A stretch of DNA of 63,258 bases, the filler included. It is 5 parts of 5 records of this genome, joined end to end, with 100 filler letters (N's around TTAATTAATTAA, not from the genome) between each part and the next. Parts side by side here need not be neighbours in the genome. Positions count along the whole stretch, not along the records: positions 46,775 to 63,258 come from SRR2962707_3585; 4 more parts are not named here. One strand, 5' to 3'. Both the position numbers and the translations under genes were made by a program. Shown piece by piece: positions 46,675-49,342 of the stretch (position 1 is its first letter; each line of letters starts with the position of its first letter). The notes below the pieces were generated by a model, which was not told where the DNA came from, did not search any database, and worked only from the letters and a program-made list of their open reading frames with translations.

Positions 46675-46774
46675 NNNNNNNNNNNNNNNNNNNNNNNNNN
46701 NNNNNNNNNNNNNNNNNNTTAATTAATTAANNNNNNNNNNNNNNNNNNNNNNNNNNNNNNNNNNNNNNNNNNNN
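46675..46774. other. Artificial contig linker
   Basis: 44 N + TTAATTAATTAA + 44 N. Confidence 0.98.
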
Positions 46775-46802
46775 GGTATTGCGCAGCAATGTCCCGAGAG
46801 GG
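46775..46802 (-). repeat. ~41-bp hairpin element, copy A (partial)
   Basis: CCTCTCGGGACATTGC-TGC-GCAATACC follows orfB codons LVHS, where DQG would be expected. Confidence 0.7.
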
Positions 46803-47185
46803 GGAGTGTACCAGAACTTTGTTCGTTGGTTTGCGCCTCGAAACAGCAATCAGCAGCGCCTGCAATACGAGGTCTGTTGGTTGTCGGCTTTGCATCGACC
46901 ACCCCACGATACGCCGTGAAAAGAGATGGATCACAACCACCAGATATGAGAACCCTTCATGTGTTTTAACGTAGGTAATATCTGTTACCCAGGCGCTGTT
47001 GGGGGCTTGGACATCGAATTGACGATCCAAAGTATTATCGACAACGACTGATGGCTTGCCACCATACTTGCCGGGTCGACGTTTGTATCCGATTTGCGCG
47101 TGTATCCCAGCCAATCTGGCCAGTCGGTCCACACGGTTTGGACAACACGTCTCACCCAGATCGCACAGATCGTCGTGCAGTTTGC

Positions 47186-47226
47186 TCCTCTCGGGACATT
47201 GCTTTGCAATGCCCTGACGGCCAGTG
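47186..47226 (+). repeat. ~41-bp hairpin element, copy B
   Basis: TCCTCTCGGGACATTGC-TTT-GCAATGCCCTGACGGCCAGTG; removing it restores GGC TAT CGC AAA CTG (GYRKL) in orfB. Confidence 0.8.
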
Positions 47227-47452
47227 GATAGCCGTAAATGTTGCCACACTCTTCCCAAGCTTCTTTGAGTAGCTTTGTCTGGCGCTCATCTTCCAGCGCC
47301 CGATGGCTTAACGGATTTTTAACCCACGCATAAAATCCACTTGGATGAAGGCACAGGCAACGACACATCGCGCGAACCGAAAACAACGGACGATGCTCGA
47401 CGATAAACGCGTACCTCACTTTACATCCCTGGCGAAGTACGCGGCTGCCTTC

Positions 47453-48748
47453 CTAAGAAACAGTCATGTTTGGTCTGTGCAGGTAATTCTTGCAAATCAT
47501 ACCCGAATGACTTGGCCCGTCGCTTGAGATTGCCGAGCACGCGATTGCGGTATCTTTCCTCATAATGGGGGACGCGCCGGGGTCTCGATAGGTCATGCCG
47601 TGGCGCAGGGTGTTGTAGAACAGGACCGCGATCTTGCGTGCTGTGGCTGTGACTGCTTTGGCCTTACCCGCGCGCGCGGACAGTCGGCGGTAGAAAGCAC
47701 CCAAAGCAGTGTCACTCCGCCCAATCGTGACGGCTGCCAATCGCAAGAGAGCTGCGGCGCGGCTGGATGATCGCCGTGTTCGGGATGATAACACCTTTCC
47801 TCCAGATATCTTGTTGCCCGGTGCCAGACGGAGCCATGACGTGAAGTGTTTAGCACTTAGCCATGCGCGCAAATCAGTGCCGCATTCGCCAACCAGCTTG
47901 AGCGACAGAGACCGGCCCATCCCATGGATTTGCGTCAAATCAACCCCGAGAACGCCAAACAGCGCGGCCCGCCCGCAGGTCAAACGAAGGCGTACTGACC
48001 TGCTTGGTCTTGGTGCGCGGGCGCGGCAACTTGCTGGGATCATATTCAGTGTCCGAGCCTAATCCCGCCAGTGTCGCCTCAAGATGACGATCACATTCCA
48101 GCACCTTGGCCTGATAGAAGTCATAGAGTTCGAGCGACTGGGTCAGCGCGAAGATGTGTTCGGGACGATCATTTCCATTGAGTGCAGCTTTGATTGTCTC
48201 AGTTGAAACCTTGCAACGCACGTCACGATAGGAGGCCAACACGTCCAAATCCCGTTCGCCGACGACGATGCCGCAGATGATCTTCATCCCCGTAATATCC
48301 GTGATGTCAGACACAACATGATGCAGTTGGAGGTTCACCTCCATTGGTGCTTTCTGCATGTGTTGAATGGGGGCCGCTGCATATTCCACCAACCGTTCAC
48401 GTTGGCGCAGATAGTCTCGCAAGGTCGCAATCTCGGCCGTTGGTCGAAAGCTGCCGCGTAGCGAGCGTTGACCAGAATGACCTCAAAGCCGTGCTGCTCA
48501 AGTATCTCGTAAGCTGGGATCCAGTACACACCGGTGGATTCCTTCGCAACGCTGGTCACACCGTGTGATTTAAACCAATCGGCCAAATCGTGCAGATCAT
48601 GCGTGAACGTGCCAAACGCACGCACCGGTGCATCCGTCACCTCTGGGTTTACAGCCGCCATGTGTTCGCGTGAACCGATATCAACGGCGGCAGCGCCAAT
48701 GTTCACAGTCTCAATCGTCGAGATCTTGTGGGTCTTTTGCTTCGCCAT
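47453..48748 (-). pseudogene. IS110 transposase, frameshifted with an internal deletion
   Basis: Split across track ORFs 48335-48769, 47940-48422 and 47453-48043. Jumps from VNARYA to RGSFRP near 48455, losing the KTDxxDA segment. Confidence 0.85.
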
Positions 48749-48771
48749 CTTCTGTCCTCCTGTTAGCAACA

Positions 48772-48927
48772 GAAGGGCGTGGGCTATGCAAATCCGTCAT
48801 CTTCCTAACCGGGATCACCGCAAGGCGGTGTCACCACTCTCAAGTTCGCATCAGCCCATGGACCACGTTTTTTAACGGGGTTCTGCCCAAAGACAGACCA
48901 CCAATAAGCGAACGGCCGCTGCCCTTC
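48772..48927 (-). ncRNA. Candidate IS110 bridge RNA
   Basis: Outer stem GAAGGGC/GCCCTTC encloses two stem-internal loop-stem modules; the loops contain TTAAAAAA (target match) and TTAGGAAG (element-end match). Confidence 0.7.
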
Positions 48928-49342
48928 ATAGCGCAACACTAGCACAGGCTGTTTCTACCGCGCACAGGCGGGCCACAACCCGGAACGGTTTTTAAGATAT
49001 CGCGCTCCTCAGAGACGCGGGCCAGTTCCTTCTTCAAGCGTCTGCTCTCCGCAGCCTGTTCGGCGGTCTCGTTGATCTGCTTGCGCGGCTGCGAAAAATG
49101 CGCCTTCCACGTGTACAGTGATTTGGTGCTGATCCCTAATCGCTCCGACACCTCAGCTACTGAATATCCGCGATCCACCACTTGGGCGACCGCATCACGC
49201 TTGAACTCATCCGTAAATCTAATCCCTGACATCACTGCCTCCTTGCTTCCAAAATTACCAAGCAAGGCGTCTAGGAAACTAGGGGCTATTCACTTTGCCG
49301 GTGCAGGAAAATTTCTGATACCCAAAGCTTTCGGCCTTTGAA

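Follow-up and report, generated by a model that had tools for sequence, protein, structure and literature searches.

A probable bridge RNA gene with reversed guide order in a decayed IS110-family element at an IS3 slippery site

The element, its host site and its relatives

The window, that is, the whole 63,258-nucleotide stretch of DNA analysed here, carries on its minus strand an IS110-family element of approximately 1.5 kb lying within an element of the IS3 family, for which the orfA helix-turn-helix domain, the A AAA AAG slippery site and the orfB rve domain are all present (Table 1). The IS3 orfA DNA stops at ..GAGCGCGATATCTTAAAAA, the insert spans CCGTTCCGGG.. (48988) to ..CTGTTTCTTAGGAA (47450) and the host resumes with GGCAGCCGCGTACTTCGCC; in an uninterrupted IS3 relative from a Sulfitobacter plasmid the sequence ..ACTATTCTAAAAAAATGCGACCGCGTACTTTGCG.. 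is continuous where the two flanks of the window copy meet. The IS110-family insert occupies the A-run slippery site of the IS3-family element. Its left end reads CCGTTCC from 48988 and its right end TTAGGAA, the coordinates taking in a single AA core, the one at the right end. The left junction of the window copy is ATCTTAAAAA/CCGTT, with five As, where relatives have six, among them L011, which is inserted in the same kind of IS3 element.

Table 1. Features of the element and its flanks (positions are those of the window)
Feature	Coordinates	Strand	Basis or remark
IS110-family insertion sequence	47450..48988	-	Junctions; ends align with 80+ relatives among the matches listed
Left flank, orfA of the IS3-family element, which stops at the A-run with ..ERDILK	48989..49232	-	PF01527, E 1.4e-16; alignment with uninterrupted relative
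Right flank, IS3 continuation (orfB, integrase core)	46775..47449	-	PF00665 rve, E 8.3e-16; alignment with uninterrupted relative
Right end (left donor plus AA core) TTAGGAA	47450..47456	-	Includes transposase stop TAG, 47455-47453
Transposase pseudogene, three ORF pieces in different frames, approximately 24 codons missing	47453..48748	-	ORFs; Pfam; tblastn
Subterminal inverted repeat, left copy AGAAACAG	48949..48956	-	Partner CTGTTTCT at 47455-47462
Hairpin close to the left terminus, CGGG-N6-CCCG	48969..48982	-	Alignment read by eye
Putative bridge RNA core: outer stem around target-binding and donor-binding arms	48768..48930	-	Covariance model R1, structure statistics
Outer stem, 5' strand GAAGGGC	48921..48927	-	Pairs with 48772-48778; helix 1, compensatory pairs 3/7
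Outer stem, 3' strand GCCCTTC	48772..48778	-	Partner of 48921-48927
Target arm basal stem, 5' strand GGCCG	48913..48917	-	Pairs with UGGUC 48861-48865
Target arm basal stem, 3' strand UGGUC	48861..48865	-	Partner of 48913-48917
Target-binding loop, 5' side UUCGCUUAU; GCUU at 48906-48909 is the proposed right-target guide	48904..48912	-	Changes with right flank
Proposed left-target guide TTAAAAAA, 3' side of target-binding loop	48868..48875	-	Same sense as left flank plus core
Donor-binding loop, 5' side GAACUUGAGAG	48837..48847	-	Nearly invariant
Donor-arm apical stem-loop	48810..48836	-	Helix 6, compensatory pairs 5/10
Proposed left-donor guide TTAGGAA, 3' side of donor-binding loop	48802..48808	-	Identical to the element's last 7 bases

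The element encodes a recombinase with DEDD (PF01548) and PF02371 domains, which in the window is represented by a pseudogene whose pieces carry both Pfam domains and correspond in tblastn to residues 1-98, 123-286, 285-418 and 386-447, in different frames. The recombinase of the intact homologue, P0001, is 455 aa long and matches NF033542 ('IS110 family RNA-guided transposase') with 247 bits, the cut-off being 140. Towards the ends of the element lie the two copies of a subterminal inverted repeat with the core AGAAAC/GTTTCT (AGAAAC(AG) with (CT)GTTTCT) and 0-5 further complementary bases, placed asymmetrically, the left copy approximately 32 nt and the right copy 6 nt from the nearer terminus. 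Both sides of the extension have changed in L083 (TCCC/GGGA) and L086 (ACAA/TTGT), and L088 was also examined. The hairpin close to the left terminus seems, by eye, to be kept by compensatory changes, with GCGC/GCGC in L031 and GCA/TGC in L039.

Elsewhere in the window, eight masked 44-base runs of N occur as four pairs between 10189 and 46774, one pair (46675-46774) falling at the IS3 orfB just to the right of the element. A-rich 7- and 8-mers such as TTAAAAA are common at approximately 10,000-32,000 and scarce in the rest of the window, which suggests a stretch of lower G+C content.

Relatives were collected in three ways. A blastn search with the element matched 252 plasmid records, 48 of which spanned 80% or more of the element; scanning one genome per species with the protein as guide yielded at least 600 stretches, at least 505 of them encoding a relative, and the best 80 of these 505 were kept; and a tblastn search of plasmids matched 272 records, from which 12 distant relatives were taken with protein identities of 72% down to 39%. 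In G001, the nearest genome compared, the IS3 flank and the RNA are both absent. Among the matches listed, the left flank ends in [CT]TAAAAAA in 62 of 84 elements and is an open frame ending ..LK(K) in 60 of 84; judged from these flanking frames, 60 of the 84 relatives listed are inserted in IS3 frameshift sites. Because most relatives have this one target in common, they represent approximately 6 to 10 independent events, not 80.

Fold and conservation of the leader

The leader, between the left junction (48988) and the transposase ATG (48748-48746), had been read from the sequence alone as a non-coding end specifying an RNA with an outer stem around two arms. Covariance model R1, built on this arrangement as a structure of 36 pairs (the 7-bp outer stem plus a basal and an apical stem in each arm), matched the window once only, over its full length and with 169.2 bits, where intact copies range from 151 to 172. 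The two strands of the outer stem and the target 8-mer had been placed correctly on the minus strand (GAAGGGC 48927-48921, GCCCTTC 48778-48772, TTAAAAAA 48875-48868), as had the donor 8-mer TTAGGAAG (48808-48801). The inner stems TCTGTC/GGCAGA, GGGCTGATGCGAA/TTTGCATAGCCC and CACCGC/GCGGTG that were named in the same reading are all real; TCTGTC/GGCAGA proved to be a lineage-specific insertion on top of a conserved GG.GG/CCCC stem.

A lone sequence proves nothing here, since the single leader, whose minimum-free-energy fold recovers the outer stem and both arms, does not fold better than expected at random (z = -1.24, with folds as good in 21 of 200 shuffles), and support for the structure comes from the relatives. 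In set A4, comprising 35 diverse sequences out of 63 non-redundant leaders, 98.9% of cells are paired, a figure that falls to 42.8-48.0% when partners are slid by 1-3 columns. The stems are conserved, as had been proposed, through compensatory changes: both sides differ in 12 of the 36 pairs, against 6.7 +/- 1.3 in shuffles, and none of 500 shuffles attained any of five structure measures. Pair 14:71 in the basal stem of the target arm, for example, is GC in 25 sequences, UA in 8, AU in 1 and CG in 1. With the 63 non-redundant leaders as input, RNAalifold gave 43 pairs, and compensatory changes were present in 11 of these; one predicted pairing, CUUGA/UUAGG, which would sequester the donor guide, was dropped because by eye it is lost in distant relatives.

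The covariance model found full-length matches in L083-L090, L093 and L094, which have 50-72% protein identity, and a weak match in L091 (39%), while L092 fell under its threshold and had its guides read by eye. In this distant set, L091 included, 95.9% of cells are paired and 25 of the 36 pairs are compensatory, among them all seven pairs of helix 1, the outer stem, in an alignment that was fitted to the model and so tilts in favour of structure. Several pairs are kept as G-U, pair 15:70 being GU in 17 of 35 sequences and pairs 18:67 and 96:134 GU or UG in all 35, and the invariant ones point to an RNA on the transposase strand. A search of Rfam with the leader gave no match to a bridge RNA model; sub-threshold matches to sX9 (19.3 bits, threshold 44) and MIR8139 (17, threshold 90), on the other strand, were rejected as unrelated. 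No sigma-70-type promoter was predicted in the leader, nor across the natural right-end/left-end junction of L078.

Guides and their covariation with flanks and ends

The sequence-only reading had taken the two 8-mers for the recognition segments of a target-binding and a donor-binding loop. Each lies directly after the 3' strand of an apical stem and hence on the 3' side of its internal loop, which agrees with the proposal that the left-side guide is found on the 3' strand of each loop. Both 7-mers, TTAAAAA and TTAGGAA, occurred together in 23 of 200,000 first-order Markov resamples of the 240-nt leader. The further claim, that the target 8-mer is identical to the element's own empty site, stands for seven contiguous bases of the left flank; the window's left junction has five As, so the match to its own flank extends over 7 bases, and the six-A site is completed by one A from the AA core.

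The covariation check that had been suggested bears out the assignment of the loops, the 8-mers changing with the left flank and with the right end. Among the matches listed, 66 of 84 elements have TTAAAAAA as the target guide. When the best match of each of 11 distinct 8-mers was sought within its own upstream 170 nt, 76 of 88 positions agreed over the 11 guide classes, and only 12 of 100,000 permuted pairings were as good. The guides and left flanks that depart from the common pair are TTGAAAAA and CTGAAAAA in L017-L019, TCTAAAAA and TCTAAAAA in L087, CTGTAGAG and ATGTAGAG in L088, CTTGAGAG and CTTGAGAG in L089, TTACCTAA and CTACCTAA in L093, TTACCTAA and CTACCCAA in L094 and, by eye, TCCTGAAA and TCCTGAAA in L092. 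Poorer agreement with the element's own flank was seen in L027 (5/8) and L041 (6/8), and the left junction of L090 was not fixed confidently, its best match (7/8) lying at -109.

For the donor guide, the right end was located by its GTTTCT motif, independently of the guide. Guide and right end agreed at 41 of 42 positions over six classes, and of the 720 permutations only the identity did as well. The classes, right end before guide, are CTTAGGAA and [GAT]TTAGGAA, CTTGGGAA and GTTGGGAA, CTCAGTAA and TTCAGGAA, CTTGAAAG and TTTGAAAG, CTTGAGAG and TTTGAGAG, and CTCAGGAG and TTCAGGAG; by eye, L091 agrees at 7/8 and L092 at 8/8. Mismatches with the element's own end occur in L078, L035 and L083 (6/7 each), L081 (5/7) and L018 (2/7), the right end of L018 having apparently been replaced. 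The core dinucleotide is AA in the main clade and AG or AT in distant relatives, with both guides shifting together, and covariation of guide with target and of guide with donor is seen down to approximately 40% protein identity.

Some individual copies deserve mention. Four copies from one Roseovarius genome bin (L017-L020) have both guides altered, to TTGAAAAA and TTGGGAA, a right end without the TAG stop, and sites unlike IS3 frameshift sites. On the 1952-base contig L078, where the donor guide is TTGGGAA against TTAGGAA, the sequence at positions 1-100 begins with the 3' end of a transposase gene and runs as ..GGCTGTTTCTTAGGAA/CGGTC.. into a left end, a natural right-end/left-end junction that reflects a tandem arrangement, a circular form or an effect of assembly. 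A Sulfitobacter dubius plasmid (L002:1501-4625) holds two head-to-tail copies separated by ATCTTAAAAAA, which is an 11-base repeat of the left target and not a plain right-end/left-end junction. In L089:1-700, from the Burkholderia vietnamiensis G4 plasmid, the target guide CTTGAGAG is identical to an L088-type IS110 element's right end, and the insertion lies exactly where such a copy ends; apparently, one IS110 lineage has its target in the end of another. On the 5' side of the donor-binding loop, the invariant segment (48837-48847) includes CUUGAGAG, an 8-mer that recurs as L088's right end and as L089's target guide; this recurrence may be due to chance.

The right-side guides had been described as short or unclear, and this is how they turned out: the right-target guide GCUU is short and a right-donor guide was not found. 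The 5' side of the target arm ends in GCUU(A/U)U, complementary to AA plus G(C) on the top strand of the IS3 site. By eye, this segment shifts with the right flank in three lineages, being GAUU where the flank is AA/TC (L084, L085), GCAUU where it is AA/TGC (L093) and GGUAUU where it is AA/TTCC (L094, 5/6), and the C of CUU stands opposite G in 37 of 44 distinct combinations of guide and flank. The most distant proteobacterial relatives, L088 and L089, have GCCAA, which finds no complement in their own right flanks. The 5' side of the donor arm is invariant whatever the left end and does not covary with it, and a column-by-position complementarity search against the left end's initial 10 bases yielded only scattered, non-contiguous signals in place of a right-donor guide. 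Two candidates for that role, GAC after the left-donor guide and ACUUGAGAG on the 5' side, failed in distant relatives.

The bases that follow the long guides were also compared with the recombining DNA. After the target guide comes C, the first base of the left end, and 2-3 bases match in L089, L088 and L092. At position 9 of the donor guide, the base is the one with which the right flank begins in 41 of 54 distinct combinations (31.1 expected); since the conserved G drives this agreement, it is no more than suggestive. These observations are suggestive of a tendency of the bases after the long guides to match the recombination products, which might be the mirror image of the handshake guides that the available part of the IS621 account describes (Hiraizumi et al., 2024; PMC11208158).

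Taken as a whole, the comparisons indicate that the region is very probably a bridge RNA (seekRNA) gene that belongs to an IS110-family insertion sequence and shares the direction of transcription of the transposase gene. By analogy with IS621 and ISEc21, we infer that the RNA would be made, bind the recombinase and direct recombination. The 7-bp outer stem would enclose two arms, each a stem, an internal loop and a further stem; the left-target guide TTAAAAAA would pair with the bottom strand, and GCUU on the 5' side with the top strand at the AA core and at the base or two with which the right target begins. Read jointly, the guides give U/C-U-A6-G, corresponding to the slippery heptamer A AAA AAG in transposase genes of the IS3 family, the site occupied by the window copy and by most relatives.

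The leader might be a structured 5' untranslated region that controls translation or stability of the transposase mRNA, the 8-mer matches being leftovers of shared history and not guides. The outer stem indeed stops 24 nt before the ATG, with a small hairpin and a GGAGG ribosome-binding site next, and the failure to predict a promoter in the leader fits the same idea; we nevertheless regard it as extremely improbable, for it leaves unexplained both the loop 8-mers that shift with flank and far end in independent lineages and the 5'-side segment that shifts with the right flank. Scarcely more credible, though very slightly so, is the proposal that the matches act as DNA, as internal copies of the target and the right end in a DNA-DNA or protein-mediated synapsis that needs no RNA. 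The subterminal inverted repeat and the hairpin close to the left terminus do look like sites for DNA or protein. Against this, the stems are maintained with G-U pairs (15:70, 18:67, 96:134) which on the opposite strand would read as A-C mismatches, the recombinase belongs to a family that NCBI names RNA-guided, and published members, as far as the available parts of their accounts go, require the RNA (PMC11208160, PMC11187229).

The bridge RNA assignment is left untouched by a further reading, which has no bearing on what the region is and which we are somewhat inclined to accept, namely that recent insertion is the sole reason for the conservation of the RNA gene and that the window copy is inactive, even in trans. 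Its transposase gene lies in at least three frames and lacks approximately 24 codons, the A-run at its left junction is short by one base, and it is the single copy in the window, with none in the nearest genome compared (G001); its RNA core, however, scores as well as those of intact copies. As far as its sequence can tell, the window copy has an intact RNA gene and a broken recombinase gene, so that the RNA could work only with a recombinase from another copy, if at all.

Comparison with known systems and significance

Bridge RNAs and seekRNAs are established, and their structural diversity is acknowledged, in the parts of the literature available to us, to which the following comparisons also refer. 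For 85.7% of the IS110 entries and 93.0% of those of IS1111, Durrant et al. (2024; PMC11208160) predict bridge RNAs, and a 2026 preprint gives 86 covariance models, many of which depart from IS621 (10.64898/2026.10.21.760802). Like the RNA of IS621 (PMC11208160), the present one would be specified by a left non-coding end that is long and lies upstream of the gene for a DEDD recombinase, and its target-binding arm would precede its donor-binding arm, both arms having two stems with an internal loop between them. Further points in common are a left guide that is long (7-9 nt) and in top-strand sense, a short right guide of approximately 4 nt complementary to the top strand, and a 2-nt core common to target, donor and guides. 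The sequence-only reading had allowed that the layout may differ from that of IS621, and it is in fact the reverse: here the left guides come after the 3' strands of the apical stems, which places them on the loops' 3' side, and the right-target guide stands ahead of the 5' strand, whereas IS621 has the opposite arrangement (PMC11208160). The core is AA here and CT in IS621, no right-donor guide was recognized here, the recombinase has 455 aa against 326-328 and is only weakly similar (phmmer E 5.3e-08), and the target is the IS3 slippery site in place of REP elements.

A second point of reference is the seekRNA of ISEc21, which likewise stems from an upstream non-coding region and has its target in a conserved stretch of IS3-family transposase genes, with insertion that causes no target duplication (PMC11187229). 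An IS110-type element that targets IS3 genes is already in print (Siddiquee et al., 2024; PMC11187229); ISEc21, however, targets the codons around the DDE motif's second D and not the frameshift site, its bottom-strand match lies 5' of its top-strand match, which is reversed here, and its transposase has 358 aa (PMC11187229). Guide order reversed relative to ISEc21 is described for IS1111-type elements (PMC11187229), with which the present element shares a top-strand complement 5' of the bottom-strand complement and a subterminal inverted repeat (PMC11187229, PMC11208160). Unlike that group, which has its non-coding region downstream of the transposase gene and transposases of 330-350 aa (PMC11187229, PMC11208160), the present element has its leader upstream, a 455 aa transposase, and a stop codon within its last 7 bases. 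Subterminal inverted repeats of the IS1111 group are 7-17 bp long, and those here consist of AGAAAC/GTTTCT plus 0-5 bases; their placement at unequal distances from the ends (approximately 32 nt on the left, 6 nt on the right) is a further difference. A length of 455 aa is in the size range given for the subgroup around IS110 itself (PMC11187229). In the literature searched we found no description of the swapped layout in an element with an upstream leader, nor of an IS110 insertion at the IS3 frameshift site; published supplements may already list the clade, the layout or the target.

The window copy itself is a decayed relic; the kind of system is known, its layout is a variant, and the copy has no consequence for its host beyond being a relic. 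The insertions provide a clear case, in ecological terms, of one mobile element using another as a landing pad and inactivating it. We put forward tentatively, as a possibility that we hold to be less than even, that a clade of IS110 recombinases of approximately 455 aa uses a bridge RNA that mirrors that of IS621, with the short guide on the 5' side, and is moreover a specialized parasite of insertion sequences. If the latter part is true, the nine most conserved bases of IS3 genes would serve as a safe landing site. The mirrored geometry is what would be expected if the cargo of RNA plus recombinase had been inverted relative to the element's ends and, if it is true, the bottom strand, not the top, would be exchanged first.

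Bridge RNAs are, to our knowledge, the only known guides that specify both recombination partners, and they are under development as genome-writing tools. A natural clade in which the order of the guides within the loops is swapped would mean that the layout is not fixed, and such a swap would bear on the order of strand exchange and on the design of such RNAs.
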